From NCBI RefSeq assembly GCF_054482595.1, contig NZ_CM137008.1: a stretch of 64,000 nt of DNA; one strand, given 5' to 3'. Both the position numbers and the translations under genes were made by a program. This document shows, piece after piece, positions 30,442 to 50,470 of this stretch. The number at the start of each line of letters is the position of its first letter. Position 1 is the stretch's first letter. Below the pieces are notes generated by a model. The model did not search any database. It had not been told where the DNA came from and saw nothing but the letters and a program-made list of their open reading frames with translations.

Positions 30442-32431
30442 ACAACTGGTATTACATAATTTTCGGGTATTTAACGGTACTCACACGATTGATCTGGCTC
30501 CAAGAAAGCGACCACATGAAGTAAACCCTCGTCCGATTGTGCTGTTTGGCGGTTTAAATGGTGCAGGTAAAACGTCTATTCTGTCGGCTATCCGGCTGGC
30601 ATTGTATGGGCGGCTGGCATTTGGGCTCGCGACTCAGCAACAGGATTATATTGAGCATCTTAGTTCGTTGATTCACAAAGGTGCGTACTATATTGAGCAA
30701 CCGGAAGAGGCGGCTGTTGAACTGACCTTTACCTATAATAAGGGTGGGCAGGAATCAGAGTTTACTGTTACGCGAACTTGGAAAAAGGGCAAGAAAGATC
30801 GCCTTTCTTTACAAAAGGATGGCCAACCACTCAGTGAACTGGATTATGATCAGTGCCAGGGGTTTCTTAATGAATTAATTCCTCATGGTATTGCTGATTT
30901 GTTCTTTTTTGATGGCGAAAAAATTGCGGAACTGGCAGAAGATGAATCTGGCAATATTTTGCGCACCGCTGTACGCCGTTTATTGGGCCTGGATCTGATA
31001 TCCAAACTGCGTAATGACTTAATGATTTTCGTTAAGCGCCAACAATCCAGCCAGTTAGCGGAAACTCAGCAACAGCAGATTGAAGTGCTGGAAAAACAAA
31101 GTAGAGACTTAGCTTGTCAGACAGAAGCATTGCTGGAAAAAGCTGATTTTGCCAAATCTAGAATCGAGTTTCTGTCTAAAGACATTATTCGCTATGAAGG
31201 CTTGTTGAATGCGCAGGGCGGTGCATTTGCGCAGACAAAAGCGCAGGAGAAGCAGAAAGTTGAAACACTGCTAAAAGATAAGGAGCGCCTGGAAAAAGCA
31301 CTGCGTCAGGAATGTGATGGATCATTACCTTATGCACTAGCTCCCAATATTTTATCCGAGTTGCTGGAAAAAATTGCTGATGAAACGCAGATCAAACAAG
31401 CTCAAAGCTTTGAAAAAGAGTTAAGGCTATTTTTGGCCCAGCTCAGAAACGATATTGCATTACGCTCTCGTACTACCAGTAAAATTGCAGCCGAGGCGAT
31501 TACTGATAATCTGAACGAATATATGGCAACTAAGCCGAAGGGCGATTTGTTGTTTGATATTTCTGAACGTGAAGCCGGCATGCTCCAGCAATCAATAGAG
31601 CAGGACAGTAAAAAGGCATGGCAGCGCTTCGAGCTTTACCGTATTCAGTTAGCAGAAATTGAACAGCAACTAGAGCAAGCCGCTGCCAATATTGCCCGCG
31701 CTCCGGAAGATGAGCAGTTAATGGATCTTTTTGAAAAGCTGCGCGATCTTGATAAGCAGCGTGAAAATCAGCGGCAAAAATATCTTTCATTGCTGGAAGA
31801 CGCTAAACGGGTTAAGCAACAGCAACTGGATTGTGTCCGTCAGGTGCAAAAACTGCATGATGCGGCCCGCAGTCAGCATGGCTTTAGTAGCGCCTTCAAA
31901 AATGCGCAGGAAACAATTAATTTACTCGATCGGTATAGCGACGTATTAACTCAGGCGAGAGTAAAGACGCTATCTGCTAACTTTGAAGTTGCCTATCGCA
32001 AACTGGCTCGTAAAGAAGATATGCAACTGAGTGCTCATATTAACCCAGAGACATTTGACGTTGAGTTAATTGATGAGAAGGGATCTGTCATTAATCGTAA
32101 GTTACTATCTGCCGGTGAAAAGCAGATTTATGCCATTGCTATTCTTGAGGCGCTAGCAAAAACTTCTGGTCGTGATTTGCCGGTGATTATTGATACGCCA
32201 TTAGGACGTCTGGATTCACAACATCGGGATAAACTAATTAACCATTATTTCCCATTTGCCAGCCATCAAGTGGTGCTATTGTCTACCGATACGGAAGTGG
32301 ATGAACGTTATTTTGTTGACCAATTACGTGATGATATTTCTCATGCTTACGAGATAGTATTTAACACGCATACTAAATCATCAGCGTTGAAGCCCGGTTA
32401 TTTCTGGGAATTAACTAAGGAGGCTATCTGA
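30383..32431 (+). CDS. dndD: DndD, SMC/ABC-like ATPase
   Basis: 682 aa; Walker A GGLNGAGKTS, long coiled coil, C-terminal signature and Walker B (LSAGEKQ...VIIDTPLGRLD). True start may be GTG 30431 rather than ATG 30383. Confidence 0.85.
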   Translation: MSMPANPLYWSARKTNVLIKQLVLHNFRVFNGTHTIDLAPRKRPHEVNPRPIVLFGGLNGAGKTSILSAIRLALYGRLAFGLATQQQDYIEHLSSLIHKGAYYIEQPEEAAVELTFTYNKGGQESEFTVTRTWKKGKKDRLSLQKDGQPLSELDYDQCQGFLNELIPHGIADLFFFDGEKIAELAEDESGNILRTAVRRLLGLDLISKLRNDLMIFVKRQQSSQLAETQQQQIEVLEKQSRDLACQTEALLEKADFAKSRIEFLSKDIIRYEGLLNAQGGAFAQTKAQEKQKVETLLKDKERLEKALRQECDGSLPYALAPNILSELLEKIADETQIKQAQSFEKELRLFLAQLRNDIALRSRTTSKIAAEAITDNLNEYMATKPKGDLLFDISEREAGMLQQSIEQDSKKAWQRFELYRIQLAEIEQQLEQAAANIARAPEDEQLMDLFEKLRDLDKQRENQRQKYLSLLEDAKRVKQQQLDCVRQVQKLHDAARSQHGFSSAFKNAQETINLLDRYSDVLTQARVKTLSANFEVAYRKLARKEDMQLSAHINPETFDVELIDEKGSVINRKLLSAGEKQIYAIAILEALAKTSGRDLPVIIDTPLGRLDSQHRDKLINHYFPFASHQVVLLSTDTEVDERYFVDQLRDDISHAYEIVFNTHTKSSALKPGYFWELTKEAI

Positions 32432-32787
32432 TGCTCCCGAATCGAATGGTGCTGAATCGTCAGACTGAAGAGCAGCTTAAAAGATTGAAAGGGTATACAG
32501 GGATCACACCTAATGTCGCTGCCCGATTGGCATTTTTCCGCTCGGTGGAGAGTGAGTTTCGCTATTCATCAGAACGGGATAATCGGAAACTAGATGGTTC
32601 GCTGGTGTTGGATAAGATTACGTGGCTGGGGGAGACATTACAGACTACGGAATTGGTATTGAAGATGCTTTATCCGCAGTTAGCTCAGAAGGATATGGTT
32701 AAAGCATGGGCTGCGCATGTGGAGGATGGGATTGCGGCGTTAAGGAATCATAAGAGTCTATTAAACTTTATTAAATCAATAGATTAA
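32431..32787 (+). CDS. dndE: DndE
   Basis: 118 aa small protein, 1-nt TGATG overlap with dndD; size and position fit DndE. Confidence 0.7.
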   Translation: MLPNRMVLNRQTEEQLKRLKGYTGITPNVAARLAFFRSVESEFRYSSERDNRKLDGSLVLDKITWLGETLQTTELVLKMLYPQLAQKDMVKAWAAHVEDGIAALRNHKSLLNFIKSID

Positions 32788-32795
32788 GAATTTTT

Positions 32796-32826
32796 AGGCC
32801 ATCCAAATTAACAATATGGATGGCCT
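32796..32826. terminator. Candidate hairpin terminator between convergent dndE and the DGQHR gene
   Basis: 10-bp perfect stem AGGCCATCCA...TGGATGGCCT with 11-nt loop; weak U-tract, so uncertain. Confidence 0.35.
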
Positions 32827-32845
32827 GAACAAAATTTAGTCAATT

Positions 32846-33439
32846 TTAAAAATCTGTTTTGACATTTTCGTTTAAATAATCATATATTTTTCGCTGACCC
32901 ACAGTTGTTGATGTATACTCTGTATTTTTTGTAAACTCCTCAGGATTCACAGTTTTCAATGCAGAGCACAGCTTTTCAATATTTTCTTTGTTAATTTTAG
33001 GCATGTCCATCAATTTTTTACGTAGAAACTGAAATAATGCAGAAATACCGACAGATCTAACTAACACTGTGCCTTTCTCAATACATACATTAGCCCAAAA
33101 ATGATCTTTTATCGCTGAAAAATAAATTTTCAATATTTGCTCTATCGCCTTATCATTGCCTTTTATATAAAACCATCGCAATGGGCTTTTATCCTTGCTG
33201 TTTTTATTATCAAGCCTGCCCCTTCCTTTTTCTTTTTCATCCGAATCAATTGCATTGATGGTATATCTATCAGCACGAGGGTTTTTAGATATTAGTGATA
33301 ATACACCATCAATAAATACAGACGATGATATAGACCAGTCATTTTCAGTAATTTCATTCAATACTCTATTTTTTAATCGTCTGTAGAAAGGATATTCATC
33401 TGTTTTATTAAATTTCTCACTAAAATATACAGCAAGCAA
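32846..33439 (-). CDS. DndB-like DGQHR protein, C-terminal ORF of a gene split by an in-frame TGA
   Basis: Same frame as 33701..34006; the open frame upstream of this ORF contains IIDGQHRLLGF; low-GC region. Confidence 0.6.
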   Translation of the reverse strand: MLAVYFSEKFNKTDEYPFYRRLKNRVLNEITENDWSISSSVFIDGVLSLISKNPRADRYTINAIDSDEKEKGRGRLDNKNSKDKSPLRWFYIKGNDKAIEQILKIYFSAIKDHFWANVCIEKGTVLVRSVGISALFQFLRKKLMDMPKINKENIEKLCSALKTVNPEEFTKNTEYTSTTVGQRKIYDYLNENVKTDF

Positions 33440-33700
33440 ATCAGGAGGCCAATACTCTCTGGATATATCATCAAGAGAGTATCCAAAGAGTCTATATGCT
33501 AAACTTTTAGGAACTTTTTGTTGGTTAAAATTAATTGTTGAAAATATAGTTGCTTGATTGGATGGTGGTAATGAGTTATAAATTGAACAAGGTAATTGAA
33601 TATCTTTATTCTTAGCATACTTAAATCCTAATAATCTGTGCTGTCCATCGATAATAGAACATAATCTTAGATTTATATTCGGTATTATTATCTTATATAA

Positions 33701-34006
33701 TCAATTCTCACTTTTTTTAAACTCCCATTTGTCATCTTCCTTTGCAGGTGTACCATCTTCATTATGATTGACAGAGAGTATGATTGAGTTTGGAAATGCA
33801 GCCTCATCGGAGTCTATGAATTTTGCTATGTCTAAGGCTCTTGGCATAGACTCTTTCCTCTGCACACCTGATATTTCCCCATCATCCATTTCCGCCTGAT
33901 TCACATAAATACATTTCAATAAATCTTCGGCAGACATAACCGTCTGAAAGAATTCGCCGTATGGTTGGGTGACCTTAATTGCATGGATCTCAATAGAATT
34001 AGACAT
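33701..34006 (-). CDS. DndB-like DGQHR protein, N-terminal ORF (ends at in-frame TGA 33701..33703)
   Basis: 101 aa aligning by eye to the DndB N-terminal region; start ATG directly abuts the stop of the upstream membrane gene (TAAATG). Confidence 0.6.
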   Translation of the reverse strand: MSNSIEIHAIKVTQPYGEFFQTVMSAEDLLKCIYVNQAEMDDGEISGVQRKESMPRALDIAKFIDSDEAAFPNSIILSVNHNEDGTPAKEDDKWEFKKSEN

Positions 34007-34525
34007 TTATAGCCCCTCACCTGGCTCATCATTAGAACTCATATTCCTTAATTCATCAGACACTAATGAATCTGGAGTTACAGGGATTTTAAAATCAGGC
34101 TTAACAACGGTAATGGAAAACCATAATATTATAGTTATAATAAGTGATGAAATTAACATGAAATTGACGTCATTTTTTAATCCAAAAAATAAAAAAACAA
34201 ATGATATGAACCATAAAAATATTGAACAAGATATTCTAACTTGTTTACGGTGCCTTTCAGATAAAGAAATAGGATTTTCGTTCTCGTCATCTCTGGATAA
34301 ACACTCCGCGGCTAATACGCCCAATGTGGTAATAATAAATGAAAAAATAGAAAAACCCAACTGCGTATTATCTTTTAAAAATAATGGGCCAATCCATATT
34401 CCGCAGGTTGATACAAATAATGTCACCAAAGATATAAAAATAAATTTTGGCTGAATAATTCTTGGATATAATCCTAAGATATCTTTCCACAAGTTCACCC
34501 AATGTATCATATCATTTCTCGACAT
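34007..34525 (-). CDS. Small 4-TM membrane protein of unknown function
   Basis: 172 aa with four hydrophobic helices and acidic C-terminus; 37 bp downstream of dptH on the same strand; low-GC. Confidence 0.55.
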   Translation of the reverse strand: MSRNDMIHWVNLWKDILGLYPRIIQPKFIFISLVTLFVSTCGIWIGPLFLKDNTQLGFSIFSFIITTLGVLAAECLSRDDENENPISLSERHRKQVRISCSIFLWFISFVFLFFGLKNDVNFMLISSLIITIILWFSITVVKPDFKIPVTPDSLVSDELRNMSSNDEPGEGL

Positions 34526-34562
34526 GCTTTTTACCCTAACCTTGTACTATCTACAAAAATAA

Positions 34563-37500
34563 TCAAAAAACAAGCTCCCAAAACGCTCTATCTCGCATCT
34601 TGCTAACCCGCTTATCCCCATCAACATACAGACTGAAATGTTTTTCAAGCTGCCGAATCTGCCCCATTAACGACTCCTGTTCGCCCTTATCATCCACGTT
34701 GAATACAGCCTTGATATCCGCATTTTTAATTTCGGACACACGATGAATAACCCAGGTTAGAATATATGAAGCGTAATTGTTCTCTCCAGTTTTGAAGTGG
34801 GTAATTTCCTGCGTTGACAGGATCGCTCCAACACCATATTCACGACCTTCCTTAAGGATCTTCCTCAGACTGGAAAAGTCCTGGCGCATAAAGTTATCTG
34901 CCTCATCCACCAGAATCATCTTGGTGAGCTGACGATAATCCCCCTGAATCACTGGCTTGCCGCGTTTTTGCATTTGTGCATAAAACAGATCCAGGGTTAG
35001 CGCAACCACCAGGTTTTGAATCTCTGATGAGTAGCCAGCCAATTCGATAACTGTGACACCATCCACCAGATCATACAGACTCGTCATTTTCTCTGGGTCT
35101 GTTTCAAATATCTGAAACCCAGCTAAGTTATAAAGCGCGGCGTACAATGAGTCTTCTTCTACTTTTTCCTGAGCCAGATATCGCTGCCACACATCTTCTA
35201 TGGTCGGTGCAACACGGTTCCAGGTTGAGCGATCATGAGGCACTATTCCTGCTAATTCATAGCACTCCATGATTAGCGTAACCAGTTTCATACGCTGTTT
35301 CACACCCAGGTTATAGGCTTTCCCCATTGTTTCAGAAAATGCGATTGCGGTATGTCTGGGTAACATGGGCATATCACCAAACAGTGACAAAGGGTTATAA
35401 GGTAGTAACGATAATTGATATTTCTTACCGCCAGTAGCCTTCAGAAAAGCCTCGTCCACATAGTCAGATTTATAATCAAAGATCAGTAAACCAATCGATT
35501 TTCCATCAACGTTACAGGATTGGTTACGCATTAATTGTGTCACCAGCGATTTGGTAAATTGCGTTTTCCCGGTCCCCATCGTACCGATGATGCCTGTGTT
35601 GGTATTCATAAACTTCGTGGTGTTGGTCGGTTCCCAGAATAACGGGGTTTGCCGTGTAGCGTCATGACCAAATAATACTTGTAAGGGTACAGTGCTGACC
35701 TCTGGTGTCGGCTTTGGAATATCAGGTCGTGTGTCTGGCGGTGTCGTTACCTGCACTCCCGATGCTGATGGAGATGGGTGCTCATCACTCTCTGGCTTCA
35801 GACGGTATTTATCTGGTACCCGGTAGCGTTCAGCCAATGGCAATTTACCTTCACGGGTAGTGATTAACGAGGATAGTAATGAATAAGGAATTTCGATCTG
35901 TAAGATATTCGCTGTCGTCTCTTTATAGGAGAGATCGAAGCAAGATCCGCTGTCTACATGTGCAACAACAAAGCCATTAGCATAGTCTTTTAACTCACCC
36001 AACTGATAGTCACCGGTCAACCACCATTCGCGGCGATCCAACAGGGGAGCCAGCTTATCACTGTCCAGCACACCGTACAGCTGAAGTTTCTCTACCTGCA
36101 TCAGCACCTGTCGAATAAAGAGCGCGCGATAAAGTTGCGATGCCAGTGTATGCGGCTCCAGAATATCCTGCTGTAAATAACGTTTAAGCTCAGCAGCCTG
36201 CTGGCCCGCATAGTTGTAATCTGGTCGAGCGCCGGTTTTGACTTCCAGCGGCAGTAAATAGAGACGGTTTTCTTTAAAACCAACAAAGAGCACATCATCA
36301 GAGATTGCGCCTTTACGGTACCCCTGTAGATTTCTTGATAAATCGCTTTCCTTCATCTTTAGCCCGACGTTACCAGATACGCGAATCATTTCGGCTACAG
36401 ATAGCGGTACCCAGCAGATATCAGACTCACTCAGCATGGACTGTACAAATTTATACGCGCCAATGATGCCATATTTCTCTTTGCGCTCTTTTTCACTGGA
36501 GCGCAACATCTTCAGCAACCACTCACCGTTAAAAGCATTAAATTCGGCAAGTAGATGCTGGCTATCAACGGCAGATTGCCCGGACTGGCTTTCGGTCTGG
36601 AGCAGGCGGAGGAATAGATCGACCTGCTTCGTTACCGTCACTGCATCGTAGCCTGCACAACTAGTGTACTGATCGGAATAGTGGATCAGCACAACATCTT
36701 TCTGGCTAGTAAAGAAGTCAAGAGTAACTTTAGGGTCAATAATGGTGGTCCAGAGTGCACTGTTGTAAGAATAATTGAGTAGCTGTTTAAAATTGCCGCT
36801 TACGGCCAATCCAATCCCTTGTCCGTGGTATTGACTGTTGCTCTGACGCGCTGGCTGCCACAGGCAGCCCACTAACCGGGCAAGTCGTAGAGCGCAGTAA
36901 GATTCAGTATCAACATTCCGCAGGCCAAACGCGGTAAAGTAAGCATCCCCCTGTGTTTCAGCTCCTTCTCCGGAAATCAGCCCATGACACAGTACACCGC
37001 TGGCAGCATCCTCAATGCGGATCTGGCGGCAATCCACCGGAGCTGTATTGGTGAAAAACGCCAAATGTGCATAGGCCAATTTGTCGCTTTCTGACGGCAG
37101 GACAAATTTGCTGAACGTTAACCGACTGCGTAACAGGTCAATCAGCATATCGGCCTCAGCTCGCCACGCACCGCGGTTCAGGTCAAGGTCGTTTTTAAGC
37201 TGTTCATAGCTGCCACTCTCGGCAAAGCGATCAAACATATTTGGCAGCAGGCGTTCATCGTAGCAATTTACATGCACCGAAATAGCATGCTCTTTTTCCT
37301 GCTTAAAATATTCCACTAACCCCAGAAACAGTTCTTTCGCTGTTCCCTGATTAATAGCATTAATAATCAATGCATTGTTTCCGGGACTCTGAAATAGCCG
37401 GGCGTAGGCTTCGGTAAATTCATTGAGCTTGTCTTTTACCAAACGTTTTACGTAATCGTGGCTCACCTGGCGCTGGGGAACGACATCGATCCAGAAGCGA

Positions 37501-39638
37501 TTTTCTTCCACCGGCTGCAACTGTGCGTATTCGTGTTCACTGTGGTAAACGAATGGCATCAAGCCGGACACCACCAGACGATCAAGCGTAATGGTCGGTA
37601 GTGTGGCAAATGACGCTGAGTCGTATTGTTCCTGCTCTGCGCAGATAGTTTGTACCAGTTGTAAATGGTAGGCCAACACTAGGGGATGCAACGGGGAGAG
37701 ACGTTCATGACTGTCGACATTACAAATACCCAGATGCAGCAGGCGCTTTTCCTGCGCTGTTAACGCTCTGCTCAACTCGATTTGTTGAAGCGCCTGTTCA
37801 AAGGTCGTCACTATATGGCTTACCAGCGCGCAGTATTCTGCTGACCACGATACTAGGCTAGGTAAAGTACCGCAGCGCTGGTAGTAGAGGAATAATTGGT
37901 CGTAGGCGTTATAGAGATCGGGGTGGATGGCAACGAGTTCATCCAGCGCAAACGCGCTATCGTCATCTCCTGTCCCCAAAAGACGTTGATCAACTAATGA
38001 GGCTTCCAGCGCCAGTAACTGCTGGCGAACACCGACAACCTTGTGTTCGGTATTATCAAGAATGATACGACCCTTCAATCGGTTCCAGGACGCATTCCCG
38101 TCTTCTTTGAACAGTTTATTGAAACGACTCTGGTCAAAAAGTAGCGGTAAGGTTAACCCTTCTTCGGCTCCCGGCCCTTCGATATTGAATGCCAGACAAG
38201 AATCACCTGAAACAAGCTTAAATTGGATCAGATCGCTTTGATTTGCCAGTGTTTCAAAATTCACCAATGCATAATGCTGGCAGTCAATATCACCATTTTC
38301 TTCATCCAGTATACAGACTTGGCTACCCGACTCAGCGATTCGTAGTTCGTTGTCTTCGCGTTGGAGTGTGATTTGTGGTTTACCTGGCTCGATACGGAAA
38401 CAATGCTGAATATCGTCTAGCCAGAATTGTCCTTGTCTGACCAGTAACAGGCGGAACTTGTACTCTTCGGCTGAATTATTGCGATTAGTCAGTTCGAGGC
38501 TAAAGAAGCAGGGATTCCCATCGAAAGGAACCGACGCCATAATACGGGAGCTTTTACCCCCTGCACGACTAATTCGCCAGAAACGCTCTTTTTTTAACTG
38601 ACGATGATGCGCAATTTTTATCTGGTTATCCTGAAGATCGTTGCCCTGAAAGCAAAACTCCAGCTCAGTTTGCGATTGTTCGGGTGGTACCTGTACCAGT
38701 AGGCTGATATCGCGCTTGCCTGCTTTACTTGCGCTTTTCGCCCGTTGCCAAATCACGCCATTTTCGACCGTGATATCATCCAGTACCAGTTTTTGTTCGC
38801 GGTTCTGTTCTTTTTCGTTTAGATAAACAGCGAAATCAAGCTCGCGCCAGTCGTCTTTATCATTGAAATGTTCCTGAATAAATTTGGCGCTGAATTCAGT
38901 TAATACGTTCTCCAGTTGCCCACTGTAGCGTTCAACGCTGTCCTCGATTTGACGAAATAACTTCCTGTTTTCATTCAGTCGGGTATGGAGCTGTTTCTGG
39001 CTAAAATTCAGTAGTTCATCATCTTTAAACAGCGATAGCTCGGAGAAATCCAGATTGCCGTCATCCAGCAGGCGATACAACGACGAGAAGCCAAATACGG
39101 TCGCACCTTCATCCAGTACCGTTGTTCGTTGATCCTTTAATAAGCAACGCGACAACTCTGAACGGTTGTTGTCCGTCGTGATCAACTTTTCCAATTCATG
39201 ACTGAAGGTTTCGGGGTGCCAGATAGCTCCCGGTGCCGCGACGTCTTTTGTGCTGTTAATCAGGGTGTCCAGCATGCTGTTATGAATAATCAGCAGTGCA
39301 GTTTTGGCAAACACCCCGCTGCGGCCAGCAACTTCATCGCGTAAATGGGATATGTAGTTTTCCGTGAATGCTGGCGCTGCGGCTCCGTGCAGCACCGGAA
39401 TAAGCTGAATACCATTACAGGAGAGACAGGCAAGGCGCTGCTCTGGCGCAATTTCCAGATGATTGTCACCTGCCAGGTCAACAAAAGCCTGCCAGAGTTG
39501 TAGAGCATTGTCAGGGTCAGGAGATTTAAACTGGTAACGCTCACCAGGTTGAATAATGCCACTAACCCATTCAATAAAGGTTTCCGCCAGATAGGTTTCA
39601 TACTGTTTTACGGACATACACGGCGTCTCCACTGTCAC
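34563..39638 (-). CDS. dptH: DptH/DndH-like large restriction component with C-terminal HerA/FtsK-type ATPase
   Basis: 1691 aa; C-terminal Walker A GTMGTGKT and Walker B ILVDEADN; third gene of a co-oriented set of three whose sizes match DptF/G/H as I recall them. Alternative start ATG 39617. Confidence 0.65.
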   Translation of the reverse strand: MTVETPCMSVKQYETYLAETFIEWVSGIIQPGERYQFKSPDPDNALQLWQAFVDLAGDNHLEIAPEQRLACLSCNGIQLIPVLHGAAAPAFTENYISHLRDEVAGRSGVFAKTALLIIHNSMLDTLINSTKDVAAPGAIWHPETFSHELEKLITTDNNRSELSRCLLKDQRTTVLDEGATVFGFSSLYRLLDDGNLDFSELSLFKDDELLNFSQKQLHTRLNENRKLFRQIEDSVERYSGQLENVLTEFSAKFIQEHFNDKDDWRELDFAVYLNEKEQNREQKLVLDDITVENGVIWQRAKSASKAGKRDISLLVQVPPEQSQTELEFCFQGNDLQDNQIKIAHHRQLKKERFWRISRAGGKSSRIMASVPFDGNPCFFSLELTNRNNSAEEYKFRLLLVRQGQFWLDDIQHCFRIEPGKPQITLQREDNELRIAESGSQVCILDEENGDIDCQHYALVNFETLANQSDLIQFKLVSGDSCLAFNIEGPGAEEGLTLPLLFDQSRFNKLFKEDGNASWNRLKGRIILDNTEHKVVGVRQQLLALEASLVDQRLLGTGDDDSAFALDELVAIHPDLYNAYDQLFLYYQRCGTLPSLVSWSAEYCALVSHIVTTFEQALQQIELSRALTAQEKRLLHLGICNVDSHERLSPLHPLVLAYHLQLVQTICAEQEQYDSASFATLPTITLDRLVVSGLMPFVYHSEHEYAQLQPVEENRFWIDVVPQRQVSHDYVKRLVKDKLNEFTEAYARLFQSPGNNALIINAINQGTAKELFLGLVEYFKQEKEHAISVHVNCYDERLLPNMFDRFAESGSYEQLKNDLDLNRGAWRAEADMLIDLLRSRLTFSKFVLPSESDKLAYAHLAFFTNTAPVDCRQIRIEDAASGVLCHGLISGEGAETQGDAYFTAFGLRNVDTESYCALRLARLVGCLWQPARQSNSQYHGQGIGLAVSGNFKQLLNYSYNSALWTTIIDPKVTLDFFTSQKDVVLIHYSDQYTSCAGYDAVTVTKQVDLFLRLLQTESQSGQSAVDSQHLLAEFNAFNGEWLLKMLRSSEKERKEKYGIIGAYKFVQSMLSESDICWVPLSVAEMIRVSGNVGLKMKESDLSRNLQGYRKGAISDDVLFVGFKENRLYLLPLEVKTGARPDYNYAGQQAAELKRYLQQDILEPHTLASQLYRALFIRQVLMQVEKLQLYGVLDSDKLAPLLDRREWWLTGDYQLGELKDYANGFVVAHVDSGSCFDLSYKETTANILQIEIPYSLLSSLITTREGKLPLAERYRVPDKYRLKPESDEHPSPSASGVQVTTPPDTRPDIPKPTPEVSTVPLQVLFGHDATRQTPLFWEPTNTTKFMNTNTGIIGTMGTGKTQFTKSLVTQLMRNQSCNVDGKSIGLLIFDYKSDYVDEAFLKATGGKKYQLSLLPYNPLSLFGDMPMLPRHTAIAFSETMGKAYNLGVKQRMKLVTLIMECYELAGIVPHDRSTWNRVAPTIEDVWQRYLAQEKVEEDSLYAALYNLAGFQIFETDPEKMTSLYDLVDGVTVIELAGYSSEIQNLVVALTLDLFYAQMQKRGKPVIQGDYRQLTKMILVDEADNFMRQDFSSLRKILKEGREYGVGAILSTQEITHFKTGENNYASYILTWVIHRVSEIKNADIKAVFNVDDKGEQESLMGQIRQLEKHFSLYVDGDKRVSKMRDRAFWELVF

Positions 39639-40923
39639 TCATTCGCTCCACATTTCCCATACGTTCATAAAACGCTACCAGCGTTTGTGCCGACTGGTTA
39701 TCCAGATAAAATCCGCGCTGTTCAAAGCCGCGCAGCAACTCATGCAGGCGTAGTTTGTCATTTTTACCCACAGTGAGATTGGTCAGCAGCAGCAGACGAT
39801 CCTGATTCAGTACCAGTACTTTTCCCGCCCGACCACGTACCTGAATGAAATCGGTGCAGATCTGGGTTTCAAGCTCGTTGATGTATTTCCGGTTAACTGT
39901 CGCACGATCAGATTTCTTATCCTGAAACTGTTCAACAGCAACGGTTAATAATTGTTTAAAAGCTTCTTCCAGCGTAACGGCTTGCGTATACTTCGATGCC
40001 GAAAGCTCGCGTTTTTCGATAAACTCCTGCAAATAATTATTGAGATCTTGCAGTAATTGAGATGAGTTATCAGAAAAATTTAAGCAATCCTGATAGACCT
40101 GCCAGAGTGGACGCTTCTTATCTCCTTTTATTTGTAGAACTTCCAGCGCGGAGAGTATTGGGAAAAGTTTTTCACTTTGACGAGCGAACCACTTATAACC
40201 AAAGCGTTTTATTTGATCCCGTTCAGAACTGGCTTTTTCAGTGTCGAGAATAAAGAAAAGCGACTTACTTTGTGGCTCGCCGTCCTGCCAGTTGTCCAGA
40301 TTGAGCGCTAGCTGGGCACACCAGCTAAAGGCATATAAACGCAGAGTATTAGTCAGTTCTTGTAACAAATATTGAGGGTGTTCTGCCAAAAACGCCAGAT
40401 CAGACTGAAAACAAGTCACCAGATAGGGAAGGTAGGGTTGTTCTTCAGAGAATGGGCCTTTTCCCAATAACTTTATTTTTTCATTGAGCTTATTTAGCAT
40501 TTGCTGCTCAATGAAGTTCAGCTTATCCTGGATAGGATATTCCAAGCTGAAATCTCCCATTAGATTAGCAAACAGAGTGCCAAGGCGTTTATCGGCCATT
40601 GAAGCGCCACTTATTTTTTCGCCATCAAACTGAGCATGAAATAGTAAAAAAAGCGGAGATACACGAAAGATATCTTCACTGGAAAAATACATCCGTTCCA
40701 GTACAGTCCAGAATGCTGGTTCATCAAGCAATTCTTGCAAATGAGCCTTGCAATCATCGCGAAATTGACTGGGAGTATAGGCATCAATTTTACGCTTCAG
40801 GGCGTAACTAAGCACCAATCCGGTGACAAATTGCCAGTTAATATCATTGTTTTTGTTACGTATCGGCAGATAACTATCCAGTTGATTATTACCTACTTTT
40901 AACGTCGTTGCGATAGGGTACAT
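39598..40923 (-). CDS. dptG: DptG/DndG-like protein
   Basis: 441 aa, no recognisable motif; assigned from position between the DptF-like and DptH-like genes. Confidence 0.55.
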   Translation of the reverse strand: MYPIATTLKVGNNQLDSYLPIRNKNNDINWQFVTGLVLSYALKRKIDAYTPSQFRDDCKAHLQELLDEPAFWTVLERMYFSSEDIFRVSPLFLLFHAQFDGEKISGASMADKRLGTLFANLMGDFSLEYPIQDKLNFIEQQMLNKLNEKIKLLGKGPFSEEQPYLPYLVTCFQSDLAFLAEHPQYLLQELTNTLRLYAFSWCAQLALNLDNWQDGEPQSKSLFFILDTEKASSERDQIKRFGYKWFARQSEKLFPILSALEVLQIKGDKKRPLWQVYQDCLNFSDNSSQLLQDLNNYLQEFIEKRELSASKYTQAVTLEEAFKQLLTVAVEQFQDKKSDRATVNRKYINELETQICTDFIQVRGRAGKVLVLNQDRLLLLTNLTVGKNDKLRLHELLRGFEQRGFYLDNQSAQTLVAFYERMGNVERMSDSGDAVYVRKTV

Positions 40924-40927
40924 TCCA

Positions 40928-42577
40928 CTAACCCTCCATACCGCTAATGGTGATCATGTCGTCGTCCGCTTTAGCGCGATAAACTCGCCGCCCACCAGCA
41001 TAAAACTTGATTTCGCTGCTGGATTTGGCCTGTTCAGTAATCAAATCAACGATTTCGTCCAGTAGAACAATGGCATTTTTATCGTATTTATTGGGGCGAT
41101 AGCCATTGTTTAATTTGTTCAAAAGTTCAAATAAATTAAGTCCGATACGAACTGGTAACAGAGAGTTTTGCCCAACTTTTAAATGCACGTCGAAGCCAGT
41201 AGGGTGGGCCGTATTTTTATTGCGGATGGCCTCCCAGTCAGGTTTCAATTCGACTGGCGCGGTTATTTTTACCCCACCATATTCACCTAAAAAGAACTCT
41301 TCTTTTTGCATACTCAATTCCGGCGCTTTGCGGTTTGCATAGCGCTGAATACCAGCAATAAGTTCGGATGTATAAAACCGGTTCAGTGCTTTTTTCTGCT
41401 CTGAGTCAGCGATGTAATTTTTGTGCAGATGCCAGATTTCTGAATAATGCTCAAATAAAGATTCATTGAAGAATACGGAAAATTTCTGATGATAATTATT
41501 CCCCAGAGATTCATCCTGCAGCAACCAGAAGAGCCGAATTAATGAAGCCGCATCACCCGGATTAACGCACTGGCGATCAAATCTAATGTGTAATGGCGCG
41601 AGTGCAGCTAAAAAATCATCCAGTTCAGGGTCAACCAGGCCCAATTCGTAGCGCAAAATAAACTGATCGATTTCATAGGTGTGCAGCCTAGCAGGATCAA
41701 AATCAGAAACTTTTTTAATCAGGTCGTTTTCTGCCCCAGTGAAAAGATTATCAAATAAATACCCCGGCCCCATAAGCAAATGATGCAGAAAATCCAATAG
41801 AGTTCGGGTTGTCACAAACTGATCTTTAATCAGGCGGGCCTTAAAGAGCTGAGTGATGAGAACATCCTGAACACCCGGCAGACAAAGTAATTTATAGTTA
41901 GCAACTTCTTTCAGCTCAGGGTTAACGGTCTCATCATGTCGAAAAATAAACTGAAACAAATTACTATCATCATTACGGGTTAAATTATCCAGTAATGTTT
42001 TAATAAACGATGAATACTGTTTTTTTTCATTAAACTGGAATTTAGGGTAATGCTCAAAGTCAAAAAAAGAACAATGCCCACTGCGGTATGGGCGGCTTTC
42101 TTCCTGATCTGCTGACAAGAAAGAATCGATCGCAGTGCGGATCGCCAGATGGCATTCAGCACCTTCTCTGGCAAAATTGGCGAGCATCCCGGTATTGATG
42201 CCTATAAGCAAAGGAGATGAGTATTGGTGATGATTGCTAAATAAATCATTTAAAGCATCAATAGCTGATTGCCGGGGAGCAAAGCTGTGTGTTGCATCCA
42301 GATGAAAACTAAAGCGCTGCTGATAACGAGGGTTTGACTTACAACGGGTCAAAATTTCGGACTTTCCATCACCACTACTGCCACACAAAAAGATGATTTC
42401 ACCGGGCTTAGCAACATCCAGATAACGTTGCAGCTCAGTTTCAATTTCTTGTTTAACAAAGAGTTGTTCTTTTAACTGATCGAACTCATCCTTTTGACGA
42501 TGCGTTACCGTGGTTACGGAAAACGAAGATGACTTCGCAAGTACACCCAACGCTTTACGTAATGTGATTGCGCTCAT
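40928..42577 (-). CDS. dptF: DptF/DndF-like P-loop ATPase
   Basis: 549 aa; Walker A LCGSSGDGKSE near the N-terminus; first gene of the three-gene operon. Confidence 0.6.
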   Translation of the reverse strand: MSAITLRKALGVLAKSSSFSVTTVTHRQKDEFDQLKEQLFVKQEIETELQRYLDVAKPGEIIFLCGSSGDGKSEILTRCKSNPRYQQRFSFHLDATHSFAPRQSAIDALNDLFSNHHQYSSPLLIGINTGMLANFAREGAECHLAIRTAIDSFLSADQEESRPYRSGHCSFFDFEHYPKFQFNEKKQYSSFIKTLLDNLTRNDDSNLFQFIFRHDETVNPELKEVANYKLLCLPGVQDVLITQLFKARLIKDQFVTTRTLLDFLHHLLMGPGYLFDNLFTGAENDLIKKVSDFDPARLHTYEIDQFILRYELGLVDPELDDFLAALAPLHIRFDRQCVNPGDAASLIRLFWLLQDESLGNNYHQKFSVFFNESLFEHYSEIWHLHKNYIADSEQKKALNRFYTSELIAGIQRYANRKAPELSMQKEEFFLGEYGGVKITAPVELKPDWEAIRNKNTAHPTGFDVHLKVGQNSLLPVRIGLNLFELLNKLNNGYRPNKYDKNAIVLLDEIVDLITEQAKSSSEIKFYAGGRRVYRAKADDDMITISGMEG

Positions 42578-43098: not shown

Positions 43099-43189
43099 GA
43101 AAACATTCCTTTTACCTTATCTTTTTCATGGTCTTAGAATGAGCAACCCCATTTATCGTTCGGGGAAAGTGATAGCGGAGATGATTGAA

Positions 43190-43930
43190 ATGAATAAGGT
43201 TATTGCGGTTTCAGCGCTTGCCATGGCAGGCATGTTTTCGACCCAGGCTCTGGCTGATGAAAGCAAAACAGGCTTTTATGTGACCGGTAAAGCAGGTGCT
43301 TCTGTTATGTCACTTGCAGACCAGCGTTTCCTGTCGGGGGATGGAGAGGAAACATCAAAATATAAAGGCGGTGATGGCCATGATACGGTATTCAGTGGCG
43401 GTATCGCGGCCGGTTATGATTTTTACCCGCAGTTCAGTATTCCGGTTCGTACGGAACTGGAGTTTTACGCTCGTGGAAAAGCTGATTCGAAGTATAACGT
43501 AGATAAAGACAGCTGGTCAGGCGGTTACTGGCGTGATGACCTGAAGAATGAGGTGTCAGTCAACACACTGATGCTGAATGCGTACTATGACTTCCGGAAT
43601 GACAGTGCATTCACACCATGGGTATCTGCAGGGATTGGCTACGCCAGAATTCACCAGAAAACAACCGGTATCAGTACCTGGGATTATGGGTACGGAAGCA
43701 GTGGTCGCGAATCGTTGTCACGTTCAGGCTCTGCTGACAACTTCGCATGGAGCCTTGGCGCGGGTGTCCGCTATGACGTAACCCCGGATATCGCTCTGGA
43801 CCTCAGCTATCGCTATCTTGATGCAGGTGATAGCAGTGTGAGTTACAAGGACGAGTGGGGCGATAAATATAAGTCAGAAGTTGATGTTAAAAGTCATGAC
43901 ATCCTGCTTGGTGTGACTTATAACTTCTGA
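43190..43930 (+). CDS. Outer-membrane beta-barrel protein (OmpA-like/opacity family)
   Basis: Signal peptide MNKVIAVSALAMAGMFSTQALA, alternating amphipathic strands, C-terminal ...LLGVTYNF. ORF track start 43139; 43190 preferred. Confidence 0.7.
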   Translation: MNKVIAVSALAMAGMFSTQALADESKTGFYVTGKAGASVMSLADQRFLSGDGEETSKYKGGDGHDTVFSGGIAAGYDFYPQFSIPVRTELEFYARGKADSKYNVDKDSWSGGYWRDDLKNEVSVNTLMLNAYYDFRNDSAFTPWVSAGIGYARIHQKTTGISTWDYGYGSSGRESLSRSGSADNFAWSLGAGVRYDVTPDIALDLSYRYLDAGDSSVSYKDEWGDKYKSEVDVKSHDILLGVTYNF

Positions 43931-44103
43931 CGACACTGCTCCTGAACGATAATACGTATATTTAGCAATTAAGATAATTGCGTATCTTCTGCAATTAAAC
44001 AGAAATACCCTGCAGTCTATTACTGCAGGGTTATCTGTTTCACAGATAATTTCTGATTTTTATTATCCTGTTCTCTTCATCATAATGTTGTCGATATACT
44101 CCG

Positions 44104-45603
44104 ATGAATATCAGAAAACTGTTTTGTCCGGGAAACACACCCCGGATTTTATTGTTTTTATTCTTTTTTGTTGTTTCTGCAATAACCACAATTGCATGCG
44201 GATACACTGAGAAGAATGCCACAGGAAATGTGCTGCTTCTGTTTCTCCTTCTTCTCCTTGCACACAGAAATACCCTCACATCCATTACAGCGCTGTTATT
44301 TCTGTTCTGTTGTGCACTGTATGCGCCTGCGGGTATGACGTACGGTAAAATCAACAACAGTTTTATTGTCGCGTTGCTGCAGACCACGGCTGATGAGGCT
44401 GCAGAGTTTACCGGGATGATTCCTGTTTATCATTTTCTGGTCAGTGCCGCGATTCTGGTATTCATGGTGATTTTCTGGCGGACACACCACCGCGGTCACC
44501 GTAACTGGCTGGCACTGCTGCTATTCGTATTATGCTCTGTAAACAGCTGGCCGTTGCGGATGGTTAAAGGAACTGTTGTGGGGACAACTGACACATTGCG
44601 TGAAATGCAGCGTTATAAACAACTGAGTCAGCACGGGGCTGATAACTGGAAAATCCTGCCGGGTGTGCCGTTGTATGACACGATTGTTATCGTTACTGGT
44701 GAGAGTGTGCGCAGGGATTATATGTCGGTATATGGCTATCCCGTGCCAACCACGCCGTGGCTGAATACTGCTCCCGGTTTATTTATTGACGGCTATACAT
44801 CGACAGCAGCCAGTACCGTACCTTCCCTGAGCCGGACACTGATTTATGACTATGAGCAGAACCCTGACTCCGGCAACAACGTGGTGGCGCTGGCAGCAAA
44901 AGCAGGATACAGCACATGGTGGATATCCAATCAGGGAAAACTGGGAGAGCATGACACACGCATCTCTGTTATTGCTTCTGATGCGGAGCATACCGTTTTC
45001 CTCAAGAAAGGCAGCTTCGCTTCCCGTAAAACGGATGACATGTTGTTGTTACAGGAAACAGAACGTGCGCTGGCGGATAAATCCTCGCCGAAGGTGATTT
45101 TCCTGCACATGATTGGCTCTCATCCGAATCCGTGTGACCGACTTAACTCCTGGCCGAATTATTACCTGGAGCAGTATCCCCGAAAGATTGCCTGTTACCT
45201 CGCCAGCATCAGTAAACTGGATAACTTTCTCGGTCAGCTTGATGGTATCCTTCGCCGGCATTCCCGTCACTTTGCAATGCTTTACTTTTCTGACCATGGG
45301 CTGTCGGTCAGCGACAGTGCTAATCCTGTTCATCATGATGGTCATGTGCAGGGGGGCTACAGCGTTCCCCTGATTATTACCGCCAGTGACATCACGTCTC
45401 ATCAGTCCGTCAGCAGGAAAATCAGTGCCCGTAATTTCGCAGGCATTTTTCAGTGGCTGACCGGTATTCGTACCGAAAATATAACGCCATTCAATCCGCT
45501 GACAGACGAAGATAATGAACCCGTTATGGTTTTTAACGGAGAGAAAAATGTGCCGGCAGACAGTCTGAAACCGCAGCCACTTATTCTTCCGGACCACAGG
45601 TAA
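44104..45603 (+). CDS. Phosphoethanolamine transferase (EptA/OpgE-like; sulfatase domain with N-terminal TM segments)
   Basis: 499 aa; N-terminal hydrophobic helices then a sulfatase-like catalytic region; corresponds in position to the yjgX-type gene of leuX islands. Confidence 0.7.
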   Translation: MNIRKLFCPGNTPRILLFLFFFVVSAITTIACGYTEKNATGNVLLLFLLLLLAHRNTLTSITALLFLFCCALYAPAGMTYGKINNSFIVALLQTTADEAAEFTGMIPVYHFLVSAAILVFMVIFWRTHHRGHRNWLALLLFVLCSVNSWPLRMVKGTVVGTTDTLREMQRYKQLSQHGADNWKILPGVPLYDTIVIVTGESVRRDYMSVYGYPVPTTPWLNTAPGLFIDGYTSTAASTVPSLSRTLIYDYEQNPDSGNNVVALAAKAGYSTWWISNQGKLGEHDTRISVIASDAEHTVFLKKGSFASRKTDDMLLLQETERALADKSSPKVIFLHMIGSHPNPCDRLNSWPNYYLEQYPRKIACYLASISKLDNFLGQLDGILRRHSRHFAMLYFSDHGLSVSDSANPVHHDGHVQGGYSVPLIITASDITSHQSVSRKISARNFAGIFQWLTGIRTENITPFNPLTDEDNEPVMVFNGEKNVPADSLKPQPLILPDHR

Positions 45604-45926: not shown

Positions 45927-47192
45927 TTACTGTTTTAATGGATTATTAATCTTTGCATATTCAAATGGACTGATAAATTTTTCTCTGTTTGCATCCAGAA
46001 AATCGGCCCACCATTGTAGCATCAAGCGGCGTTCTTCCAGATGCTCTGCTTTATGGATATACGCGGCCCTCACTGAATTTCGCTCCATGTGGCTCATCTG
46101 ACGTTCAACAGCATCACGAGACCACAAACCTGATTCGACCAATGAACTACAGGCCATTGTTCGAAAGCCATGACCACAAACCTCTACTTTTGTATCATAC
46201 CCCATGACCCGTAACGCACTATTTACCGTATTCTCACTCATGGGTTTGTGCGAATCGTGATCACCAATAAATATCAAGTCATGGGCCCCACAAAACTGTT
46301 TTATCTGCTTTAAAATTGCAAGAGCTTGCGTTGAAAGAGGCACTAGATGCGTTGTACGCATTTTTGAGCCTCTATGGGAATGTTTCACTCCAGGAATAGG
46401 CTCCCGCTCCGGTGGGATAGTCCATATAGACGCTTCGAAATCGATCTCTGACCAACGAGCAAAACGCAGCTCACTGGACCGAATAAAGATCAGCAAAGAG
46501 AGTTCTGTCGCCCATCGGGTTAGCGGCCTACCAGTATAGCTATCTATTTTTGTAAGCAACTCAGGGATGCGCTTTAATTCAAGCGCGGGACGATGTTGTC
46601 GATTACAGGAAGCAACCGCCCCAGCCATCTCTTGTGCCGGGTTATAATCAATTAACCCACTTTGCACTGCATAGCGCATGATGGCTGTAGTGCGCTGCTG
46701 AAGACGAGCGGCCACTTCAAGACGTCCAGACATTTCTACGGCCTTAATGGGTGCTAATAAATCTCGAGTTTTTAACTCAGCGATATTACGTTCACCAAGC
46801 GCTGCAAAAAGATTATCTTCCAGACTTTTTAGCACACGATGGGCGTGATCTTCAGACCACTTTTTATTGGTGCCATGCCACTCAATCGCGACTTCTTTAA
46901 AGGTTCGTGCTTTACTCTGTTCAACCTTATCATTTTTCTTTTTGTCTCCCGGATCGACGCCATTCGCAAGCAGCTTACGCGCCTCGTCACGACGTACTCT
47001 GGCATCCGCTAGTGTGATTTCAGGATAAACCCCAAGTGCCAGCATTTTTTGCTTTCCCTCATAACGGTACTGCAAACGCCAGTACTTAGAACCATTTGGA
47101 TGGACAAGCAGATGCATACCGCCACCATCAGTCAGCTTATATTGCTTATCCGTTGGCTTGGCTGCTCTGACTTTGATATCTGTTAATGCCAT
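45927..47192 (-). CDS. intB: P4-type tyrosine integrase next to leuX
   Basis: 421 aa; N-terminal AP2-like DNA-binding region and C-terminal catalytic region with conserved R...HGFR...Y; immediately 3' of tRNA-Leu. Confidence 0.9.
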   Translation of the reverse strand: MALTDIKVRAAKPTDKQYKLTDGGGMHLLVHPNGSKYWRLQYRYEGKQKMLALGVYPEITLADARVRRDEARKLLANGVDPGDKKKNDKVEQSKARTFKEVAIEWHGTNKKWSEDHAHRVLKSLEDNLFAALGERNIAELKTRDLLAPIKAVEMSGRLEVAARLQQRTTAIMRYAVQSGLIDYNPAQEMAGAVASCNRQHRPALELKRIPELLTKIDSYTGRPLTRWATELSLLIFIRSSELRFARWSEIDFEASIWTIPPEREPIPGVKHSHRGSKMRTTHLVPLSTQALAILKQIKQFCGAHDLIFIGDHDSHKPMSENTVNSALRVMGYDTKVEVCGHGFRTMACSSLVESGLWSRDAVERQMSHMERNSVRAAYIHKAEHLEERRLMLQWWADFLDANREKFISPFEYAKINNPLKQ

Positions 47193-47378: not shown

Positions 47379-47463
47379 TGGTGCCGAAGGCCGGACTCGA
47401 ACCGGCACGTATTTCTACGGTTGATTTTGAATCAACTGCGTCTACCGATTTCGCCACTTCGGC
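47379..47463 (-). tRNA. leuX: tRNA-Leu (anticodon CAA)
   Basis: Reverse complement reads GCCGAAGTGGCGAAATCGGTAGACGCAGTTGATTCAAAATCAACCGTAGAAATACGTGCCGGTTCGAGTCCGGCCTTCGGCACCA; CAA anticodon loop, long variable arm, encoded CCA. Confidence 0.95.
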
Positions 47464-47658
47464 ACTGAAGAGGTATGCGGAAAACGTTGTGGATTATACC
47501 TGTCGCACGCCACCATGCAAGCGCCAGCTTGCTCGCACCTCGCTAAGTGCTGAAATTTTCAGCATTGCATACAGCGATGTGTAACCTTTGTCACACTCCA
47601 GGCACCCCGCCCTGCCATGCTCTACACTTCCCAGACAACACCAGAGAAGGACCAAAAA

Positions 47659-48678
47659 ATGTCGATGATAAAAAGCTATGCCGCAAAAGAAGCAGGCGGC
47701 GAATTGGAAGTTTATGAGTACGATCCCGGTGAACTGAAGCCATAAGATGTTGAAGTGCAGGTGGATTACTGCGGGATCTGCCATTCCGATCTGTCGATGA
47801 TCGATAACGAATGGGGATTTTCACAATATCCGCTGGTTGCCGGGCATGAGGTGATTGGGCGCGTGGTGGCACTCGGGAGCGCCGCGCAGGATAAAGGTTT
47901 GCAGGTCGGTCAGCGTGTCGGGATTGGCTGGACGGCGCGTAGCTGTGGTCACTGCGACGCCTGTATTAGCGGTAATCAGATCAACTGCGAGCAAGGTGCG
48001 GTGCCGACGATTATGAATCGCGGTGGCTTTGCCGAGAAGTTACGTGCGGACTGGCAATGGGTGATTCCACTGCCAGAAAATATTGATATCGAGTCCGCCG
48101 GGCCGCTGTTGTGCGGCGGTATCACGGTCTTTAAACCACTGTTGATGCACCATATCACTGCTACCAGCCGCGTTGGGGTAATTGGTATTGGCGGGCTGGG
48201 GCATATCGCTATAAAACTTCTGCACGCAATGGGATGCGAGGTGACGGCCTTTAGTTCTAATCCGGCGAAAGAGCAGGAAGTACTGGCGATGGGTGCCGAT
48301 AAAGTGGTGAATAGCCGCGATCCGCAGGCACTGAAAGCCCTGTCGGGGCAGTTTGATCTCATTATCAATACTGTGAACGTCAGCCTCGACTGGCAGCCTT
48401 ATTTTGAGGCGCTGACCTATGGCGGTAATTTCCATACAGTCGGTGCGGTTCTCACGCCGTTGCCGGTTCCGGCCTTTACGCTGATTGCGGGCGATCGCAG
48501 TGTCTCTGGCTCTGCTACCGGTACACCTTATGAGTTGCGTAAGCTGATGCGCTTTGCCGCCCGCAGCAAGGTTGCGCCGACTACCGAACTGTTCCCGATG
48601 TCGAAAATTAACGACGCCATCCAGCATGTGCGCGACGGTAAGGCGCGTTACCGCGTGGTTCTGAAAGCTGACTTCTGA
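47659..48678 (+). pseudogene. ahr: NADPH-dependent aldehyde reductase Ahr (YjgB) with premature in-frame TAA at codon 29
   Basis: ATG 47659 encodes [28 protein letters not shown] then TAA (47743..47745); same frame continues through the zinc-ADH body (ORF 47755..48678 from GTG). Confidence 0.75.
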
Positions 48679-48807
48679 TCTCTTTGCCGGGTGCCTGTCG
48701 CCCGGCACTTAAATCTCTTTGGAAGGCGTCTCGCAATCTGCTGAATTTAGCGGTGAAGAGTGCGCAGCCGTTGCCTATACTCCAGGCAGGAAACTGGAGG
48801 AAATCTC

Positions 48808-50310
48808 ATGAGCGAACCCCTGTTAATTGCCCGTACGCCGGACACAGAACTGTTTTTACTACCCGCTATGGCTAACCGTCACGGACTGATTACTGGCGCA
48901 ACGGGGACGGGTAAAACCGTTACGCTGCAAAAACTGGCAGAGTCATTGTCGGAAATCGGCGTGCCGGTGTTTATGGCTGATGTGAAAGGCGATCTGACCG
49001 GTATCGCGCAGGCAGGAACGGCGTCGGAAAAACTGCTCACAAGGCTTAAAAATATCGGCGTCAATGACTGGCAACCGCATGCCAATCCGGTGGTGGTGTG
49101 GGATATCTTTGGCGAGAAAGGCCATCCGGTGCGGGCGACGGTCTCGGATCTGGGGCCGCTGTTGCTGGCGCGGCTGTTGAATCTCAACGATGTGCAATCT
49201 GGCGTGCTGAATATCATTTTCCGCATTGCTGACGATCAGGGGCTGTTACTGCTCGACTTTAAAGATCTACGGGCAATTACCCAGTACATCGGCGATAACG
49301 CCAAATCTTTCCAGAATCAGTACGGTAATATCAGTAGCGCATCGGTTGGTGCCATCCAGCGCGGGCTGTTGTCGCTGGAACAGCAAGGCGCAGCACACTT
49401 CTTTGGTGAGCCGATGCTGGATATCAAAGACTGGATGCGCACCGATGCCAACGGTAAAGGCGTTATTAATATCCTCAGCGCCGAGAAGCTTTATCAGATG
49501 CCGAAACTGTACGCCGCCAGCCTGCTGTGGATGATTTCAGAGTTGTATGAACAATTGCCGGAAGCGGGCGATCTGGAGAAGCCAAAACTGGTGTTTTTCT
49601 TCGACGAAGCACATCTGCTGTTTAACGATGCACCGCAGGTACTGCTGGATAAGATTGAGCAGGTGATAAGGCTTATTCGCTCAAAAGGCGTGGGCGTCTG
49701 GTTCGTTTCGCAAAACCCGTCTGATATTCCAGATAATGTGCTCGGCCAGCTCGGTAATCGCGTTCAGCACGCTTTGCGGGCTTTTACGCCAAAAGATCAG
49801 AAAGCAGTGAAGGCAGCGGCGCAAACCATGCGGGCTAATCCGGCGTTTGATATCGAAAAGGCAATCCAGGAACTGGGGACGGGCGAAGCGTTGATCTCGT
49901 TTCTCGATGCAAAAGGAAGTCCTTCTGTGGTGGAACGGGCGATGGTGATTGCGCCTTGTTCGCGGATGGGACCGGTGACGGAAGATGAGCGCAATGGCTT
50001 GATTAATCACTCTCCGGTGTATGGCAAGTACGAGGATGACGTGGACCGGGAATCCGCCTATGAGATGTTGCAAAAAGGCTTTCAGGCCAGTACCGAGCAG
50101 CAAAATAATCCCCCCGCGAAAGGGAAAGAGGTAGCGGTAGATGACGGCATTCTTGGTGGATTGAAGGATATTTTGTTCGGCACTACCGGACCACGCGGCG
50201 GGAAGAAAGATGGTGTGGTGCAAACAATGGCCAAAAGCGCCGCTCGCCAAGTGACGAATCAGATTGTACGCGGGATGTTGGGGAGTTTGCTGGGGGGGAG
50301 AAGAAGGTAA
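48808..50310 (+). CDS. yjgR: YjgR, P-loop ATPase of unknown function (DUF853)
   Basis: Starts [16 protein letters not shown]...; Walker A GATGTGKT. Confidence 0.9.
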
Positions 50311-50360
50311 GTCAGGCGAGATTTGTCTTTGCCTGATGCGACGCTGGCGCGTCTTATCAT
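50311..50360. repeat. REP element
   Basis: GCCTGATGCGACGCTGGCGCGTCTTATCA-type palindromic unit. Confidence 0.5.
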
Positions 50361-50434
50361 GCCCACCCCACTGCAATATATTGAATTTTAATTATTTTTC
50401 AGGAATGAACGAAGCACACTTTGCTAACAATAAT

Positions 50435-50456
50435 AAAGGGAGCTTTCGCTCCCTTT
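50435..50456. terminator. Bidirectional hairpin terminator between yjgR and lptG
   Basis: AAAGGGAGC-TTT-CGCTCCCTTT stem-loop with flanking T/A runs. Confidence 0.5.
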
Positions 50457-50470
50457 ATTCGTTCATTTGG

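Follow-up and report, generated by a model that had tools for sequence, protein, structure and literature searches.

In the window analysed here, a stretch of 64,000 nucleotides from contig NZ_CM137008.1 of the NCBI RefSeq assembly GCF_054482595.1, the Escherichia coli gene ahr (yjgB) is interrupted by an in-frame stop codon close to its start, beside the insertion site of a genomic island. This raises the question of whether the stop codon is a real allele or an error of sequencing, and whether a gene broken in this way could still provide its product, an NADPH-dependent aldehyde reductase.

An ochre codon at position 29 of ahr

By sequence reading, a Shine-Dalgarno (SD)-like GAAGGA was located at 47646..47651 on the plus strand (pairing with the 3' end of 16S rRNA, -5.4 kcal/mol), followed by the ahr start codon, ATG 47659-47661. 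The translated remnant of the gene (47659..47745, plus strand) comprises 28 sense codons and a premature TAA at 47743..47745 (plus strand), in which T47743 stands in place of the C of CAA (Gln29). A preliminary description of this DNA, made from the letters alone, had given the coordinates, the codon number and the frame of this stop correctly. The 28 N-terminal codons, which it had called conserved, indeed encode residues identical to 1-28 of Ahr in XH990, Santai and further close relatives with an intact gene, and the zinc alcohol dehydrogenase body continues in the same frame downstream of the TAA, as it had stated. This untranslated remainder (47746..48678, plus strand), consisting of the 310 codons 30-339 and the native TGA (48676-48678), is open and undamaged, with no second lesion; in-frame stops occur at codons 29 and 340 only.

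Ahr/YjgB is a zinc-containing medium-chain dehydrogenase of the cinnamyl-alcohol-dehydrogenase branch. Its catalytic zinc is bound by Cys41, His63, Glu64 and Cys152, and its substrate-binding domain was defined in the crystal structure as residues 1-164 and 287-338 (PMC7287880). When Gln29 was restored, the translation of the window gene scored 554.3 bits on NF047908, the Ahr equivalog of NCBIfam, whose curated cut-off is 470, and the 307-residue remainder from GTG 47755 scored 510.2 bits. The restored protein matched the E. coli YjgB structure 7BU2_A over residues 1-339 (E = 2.2e-231) with 4 substitutions, so that it differs from the crystallized K-12 YjgB at 4 of 339 residues. All four zinc ligands and the NADPH motif GIGGLG (GxGxxG) are encoded 3' of the stop, and synteny with relatives places the gene in its conserved position between leuX and yjgR (or idnK). 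Thus, compared with E. coli Ahr/YjgB (NF047908; PDB 7BU2/7BU3), the leuX-ahr-yjgR locus and the length of the frame are alike, but the frame required for the full-length enzyme is broken by the TAA at codon 29, which makes a full-length protein impossible from the window allele. On sequence grounds, the locus is ahr by descent, yet it is predicted to be a pseudogene rather than a functional member of the family.

A single C-to-T transition

The 1,501 bp around ahr were compared with 5,426 RefSeq complete E. coli genomes, among which no perfect match to this region was found. The 15 best matches each differ from the window at one base of the 1,501 bp, carrying C, and hence CAA (Gln), where the window has T47743. 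Likewise, the closest complete genome, that of XH990, differs from window positions 47379-64000 (16,622 bp) at T47743 and nowhere else. Since T47743 is the sole difference in both comparisons, the lesion amounts to one C-to-T transition in surroundings that show no other change.

The site was also searched with 55-nt queries centred on 47743, for which each 28-nt megablast word was forced to include the mutated base. The query with T gave no match in the 5,426 RefSeq complete E. coli genomes, with two local haplotypes tried, whereas the control query with C found 4,220 complete genomes sharing a word of at least 28 nt across the site, 1,134 of which are identical over the 55 nt. A comparison with other E. 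coli ahr alleles, which the preliminary description had proposed, gave CAA at codon 29, both in these 4,220 genomes and in 9 of 9 haplotypes inspected. Taken alone, the complete genomes pointed at first to an error or to a change private to this genome, an idea that was overturned by carriers in the wider collection.

The stop codon is present in independent assemblies

The leftover ORF of 293 amino acids that starts at ATG 47797 (Met47; 47797..48678, plus strand) is the one chosen by gene callers in carriers of the stop. Its exact sequence was found on 24 contigs or more, distributed over 45 index blocks, and it has no NCBI protein accession, consistent with annotation of the gene as a pseudogene. 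Fourteen loci with this ORF (L009-L015 and L024-L030) were retrieved, representing 11 separate samples: eight NCBI drafts (GCA_958334905.1, GCA_017593805.1, GCA_965257005.1, GCA_016785725.1, GCA_905397305.1, GCA_009822715.1, GCA_040048275.1 and GCA_021915125.1), two ENA metagenomes (SPAdes contigs of ERZ15808064 and ERZ2916219, with coverage of 9x and 13x) and one Logan assembly of an SRA run (ERR1623392). The identical TAA at codon 29 was found in 14 of 14 loci, with zero mismatches across ahr, and the flanks around it are identical for at least 4.3 kb in the 11 samples. Carriers of the TAA thus come from draft, metagenome and SRA assemblies, with none among the 5,426 RefSeq complete genomes. 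Moreover, the window and its nearest sister strain, SM107, differ over 46 kb by 6 substitutions only and by no indel, indicating that both assemblies are of high quality.

If the T were an error of sequencing or assembly, the true codon being CAA and ahr intact, the absence of the T 55-mer from the complete genomes, 4,220 of which match the C 55-mer, would be expected, and so would the fact that the closest genomes differ from the window at base 47743 only. However, an error does not readily produce the same T, in identical context, in 11 samples from differing submitters and methods, nor is an error-prone assembly suggested by the zero indels between the window and SM107, and we regard this explanation as extremely improbable. 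The TAA is a genuine heritable allele, common to a small sub-lineage within a single, highly uniform clone of E. coli. Of the two alternatives in the preliminary description, the sequencing error is accordingly contradicted by the 11 samples with their matching flanks, and the "strain-specific loss" of the aldehyde reductase is upheld as a loss but not as strain-specific, as the allele is found on many contigs.

Restart signals downstream of the stop are weak

Three in-frame start codons follow the TAA, namely GTG 47755 (codon 33), GTG 47761 (codon 35) and ATG 47797 (codon 47). The first opens an ORF of 307 amino acids beginning at Val33 (47755..48678, plus strand), which keeps all the zinc ligands and lacks residues 1-32. 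The preliminary description, which held that translation could restart "only at GTG 47755", had identified the first in-frame start but had passed over the other two. Pairing with the anti-SD sequence amounts to -1.5 kcal/mol at GTG 47755, -1.5 kcal/mol at GTG 47761 and +0.3 kcal/mol at ATG 47797, against -5.4 kcal/mol at the native start. The 307-residue ORF is not on record in a collection of 15 billion proteins searched by exact look-up, and exact look-ups of the 305-residue ORF from GTG 47761 and of the 28- and 42-residue N-terminal peptides found none on record either. That the 293-residue ORF alone is on record, among the restart ORFs looked up, is explained by the preference of gene callers for ATG 47797.

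We propose that the C-to-T change at 47743, by turning Gln29 (CAA) into an ochre codon, would cause ribosomes starting at ATG 47659 to release a 28-residue peptide, so that the 339-residue NADPH-dependent zinc aldehyde reductase would not be made. Restart at GTG 47755, GTG 47761 or ATG 47797 would probably be inefficient and would yield a product short of 32-46 residues. The weak SD sequences at the restart sites, together with the missing 32-46 N-terminal residues and, for the product from ATG 47797, the missing zinc ligand Cys41, suggest that the ahr allele is most likely null or nearly so.

A working enzyme might nevertheless still be made, either as a shortened Ahr through reinitiation at GTG 47755 or GTG 47761, or through read-through or suppression of the UAA. 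Reinitiation would be helped by the position of GTG 47755, which is in frame and just 10 nt past the stop, and the 307-residue product retains the four zinc ligands and the GIGGLG motif and reaches 510 bits on the Ahr model. On the other hand, its SD pairing is weak (-1.5 versus -5.4 kcal/mol), it is without the first 32 residues, which the crystal structure assigns to the substrate-binding domain, and the full N-terminus is kept in all members of the 339-residue cluster and in 9 of 9 reference alleles examined. Read-through is disfavoured by the stop codon itself, UAA being the most efficiently terminated of the stops in E. coli. As to suppression, no suppressor tRNA or recoding signal was found within the window, whose only tRNA is leuX; with its wild-type CAA anticodon, this tRNA does not suppress UAA. 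Continued production of a working enzyme therefore appears very unlikely, and the reading of the allele as null or nearly so is preferred.

A consensus scan found a terminator-like hairpin at 48689..48710 (plus strand), in the interval between ahr and yjgR, and yjgR is preceded by a strong SD sequence of its own. These two features suggest that ahr is transcribed alone and that polarity of the nonsense codon on yjgR is unlikely.

The neighbouring leuX island is incidental to the stop

The attachment site of the island, the tRNA-Leu gene leuX (47379..47463, minus strand), was detected by ARAGORN with the wild-type anticodon CAA, and the annotations of all relatives agree on tRNA-Leu. An ORF for a P4-type tyrosine integrase (45927..47192, minus strand) forms the leuX end of a dnd/dpt island, in line with the annotation of SM107. 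The integrase gene is identical in the carrier locus L009, with matches to Pfam Arm-DNA-bind_3, Phage_int_M and Phage_integrase; the integrase also matches NCBIfam NF007246, with a score below the model cut-off. The integrase gene abuts the 3' end of leuX and, according to synteny with SM107, is followed by genes for a phosphoethanolamine transferase, for dptFGH restriction and for dndBCDE phosphorothioation.

The preliminary description had placed the stop "next to the island insertion site". This adjacency is real, but a link to the stop is not borne out, as the TAA occurs beside three different islands and the intact codon occurs beside the same one. Specifically, the TAA lies beside the dnd/dpt island in the window and in the carrier loci L024, L026 and L028; beside the unrelated SNF2/methyltransferase/helicase island of XH990 in L025, which is 1 base from XH990 in 20,882 bp, this sole difference being the TAA site; and beside a divergent form of the integrase island in L030 (98.3% identity in the island part). 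Conversely, intact CAA is found beside the same integrase island in SM107, L019 and L022. The island joins the 3' end of the tRNA gene, on the side facing away from ahr, and strains with intact ahr have exactly the same sequence upstream of it (47464-47658). Given the TAA on at least three island backgrounds, the CAA beside the same island and the unchanged upstream region, the adjacency of the nonsense allele to the leuX island is incidental.

We infer that the TAA most likely arose once and was followed by turnover of islands at leuX. No SNPs informative on the number of origins were found, since XH990, L025 and the window are identical across the right flank apart from the TAA site.

A comparison of XH990, L025, L030 and the window showed that leuX carries at least three islands within one near-identical clone, and it thus behaves as a hotspot for defence islands. 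The XH990-type island is an SNF2/methyltransferase/DEAD helicase island that also encodes an endonuclease that binds phosphorothioated DNA, and the island in L030 encodes a PDDEXK_4 protein. In the window, the phosphorothioation module is complete by synteny with SM107 (27725-42577), with dndB/C/D/E on the plus strand and dptH/G/F on the minus strand, and it is adjoined by genes for an outer-membrane protein and the phosphoethanolamine transferase (43139-45603). Within this stretch, the gene for DGQHR protein 1 (associated with DNA phosphorothioation; 32846-34006, minus strand) is split by a stop within its frame, at codon 102 (33701-33703), into pieces of 101 and 282 amino acids. The split is also present in SM107 and in 22 of the 25 listed genomes, out of 124 complete genomes with the gene; the gene is intact in RM8082, 5264 and CAVP761.

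A second substitution in codon 30 of a sister strain

SM107 has CAA at codon 29 and AAT at codon 30 (D30N, G47746A; position 31178 of its locus L003), and D30N is also present in GCA_033341015.1, the substitution occupying 2 index blocks. The dnd/dpt island is common to SM107 and the window, which differ there by 4 substitutions in 43 kb; to the right of leuX, the two differ over 16.6 kb at just two bases, G47746A and T47743, which lie 3 bp apart. We considered SM107 as a revertant of the TAA, an assumption that is unneeded, as CAA and GAT are intact beside the same integrase island in the more remote relatives L019 and L022.

The proximity of the two changes raises the possibility that the loss was not neutral and that codons 29-30 are a repeated target in one very young clone, either through selection in the niche of this clone to abolish or change Ahr function or through a local, lineage-specific mutational hotspot. 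Two independent transitions 3 bp apart in sister strains would be expected by chance with a probability of about 1e-3 by our own estimate, both changes are C:G to T:A transitions, and the TAA on three island backgrounds could mean recurrence. A general hotspot, however, is hard to reconcile with zero T at the site in the 4,220 complete genomes, including the 1,134 that are identical over 55 nt, and with zero Q29 TAA among 30 informative loci with N-terminal disruptions from six other haplotypes (described below). Inspection by eye found the site to lie in no CCWGG (Dcm), CCWWGG or GAAC/GTTC motif, the nearest GAAC being at 47731-47734. The several island backgrounds are accounted for by integrase-mediated turnover at leuX instead of recurrence, and carriers make up only a small part of the haplotype, the TAA allele occupying 45 index blocks versus 1,052 for the intact protein. 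An adaptive or hotspot-driven loss is thus considered unlikely.

Other losses of ahr

Natural disruptions of ahr are not confined to the window allele. An internal deletion in strain N50 leaves 228 nt of the gene, and 163 of the 5,426 complete genomes (~3%) cover less than 80% of a 1.5-kb query that takes in leuX, ahr and the beginning of yjgR. The ORF from Met47 to the end of the gene was also built for eight other ahr haplotypes, six of which are present in the large protein collection in this form, and 37 loci of these haplotypes were fetched, of which 30 were informative. In these 30, the lesions in codons 1-46 comprise 1-bp indels at a dozen positions, Q34*, C38* and deletions spanning the start codon; Q34* (CAG to TAG, ahr nt 100) occurs in two haplotypes (L053 and L077), and Q29 TAA in none of the 30. 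Errors of assembly may account for some of the 1-bp indels in homopolymers. These cases resemble the window allele in that the same gene was lost independently and the same 293-residue ORF from Met47 is called, whereas their lesions differ from the Q29 TAA, which is replicated across many assemblies. Together, they indicate that ahr is a dispensable gene that is lost sporadically and in varied ways, and that Q29* is no general hotspot.

Engineered losses are also on record. In Keio-derived strains built for aldehyde production, deletion of yjgB had little phenotype alone, its function overlapping with those of YqhD, AdhP, EutG, FucO and others; there was only a marginal shift in isobutanol output on single deletion of yjgB or of other reductase genes, and growth was normal in strains that lacked four further reductase genes besides yjgB (PMC3439341). 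Those losses are laboratory deletions in K-12, whereas the window allele arose naturally, by point mutation, in a wild clone. With several overlapping aldehyde reductases in E. coli, loss of Ahr would be tolerated, and we infer that it carries no fitness cost in the carriers.

Taking these lines of evidence together, we assign a probability of roughly 90% to the reading that ahr in the window is a young nonsense pseudogene, null or nearly so, which is a real allele of a sub-lineage and is tolerated through redundancy. Its youth is indicated by the absence of a second lesion and by the identity of all carriers.

Consequences for annotation and use

As an ordinary recent pseudogene of a well-characterized, redundant enzyme, the allele matters little beyond bookkeeping. 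In annotation, ahr should be flagged as a pseudogene with an internal stop and not "corrected" as an error, and neither the 293- nor the 307-residue ORF should bear the name of a functional dehydrogenase. Carriers are predicted to be without one of several overlapping NADPH-dependent aldehyde reductases, and a carrier employed as a production host could differ slightly in its detoxification of aldehydes or its spectrum of products. The TAA also provides a handy single-base marker of the small sub-lineage.

Several further features of the window were recorded. Window positions 1-7597 are inverted relative to SM107, in which copies of IS1 lie at the junctions, and SM107 carries in addition an IS3 element of 1.3 kb, inserted at the equivalent of window position ~20640. 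Between pepA and holC lies a 96-bp tandem array of 3.1 copies (54437-54731), which appears to be about one unit shorter in the carrier locus L026, and an 18-bp array of 11.9 copies (62746-62959) lies within an ORF of 598 amino acids (61715-63511, minus strand).
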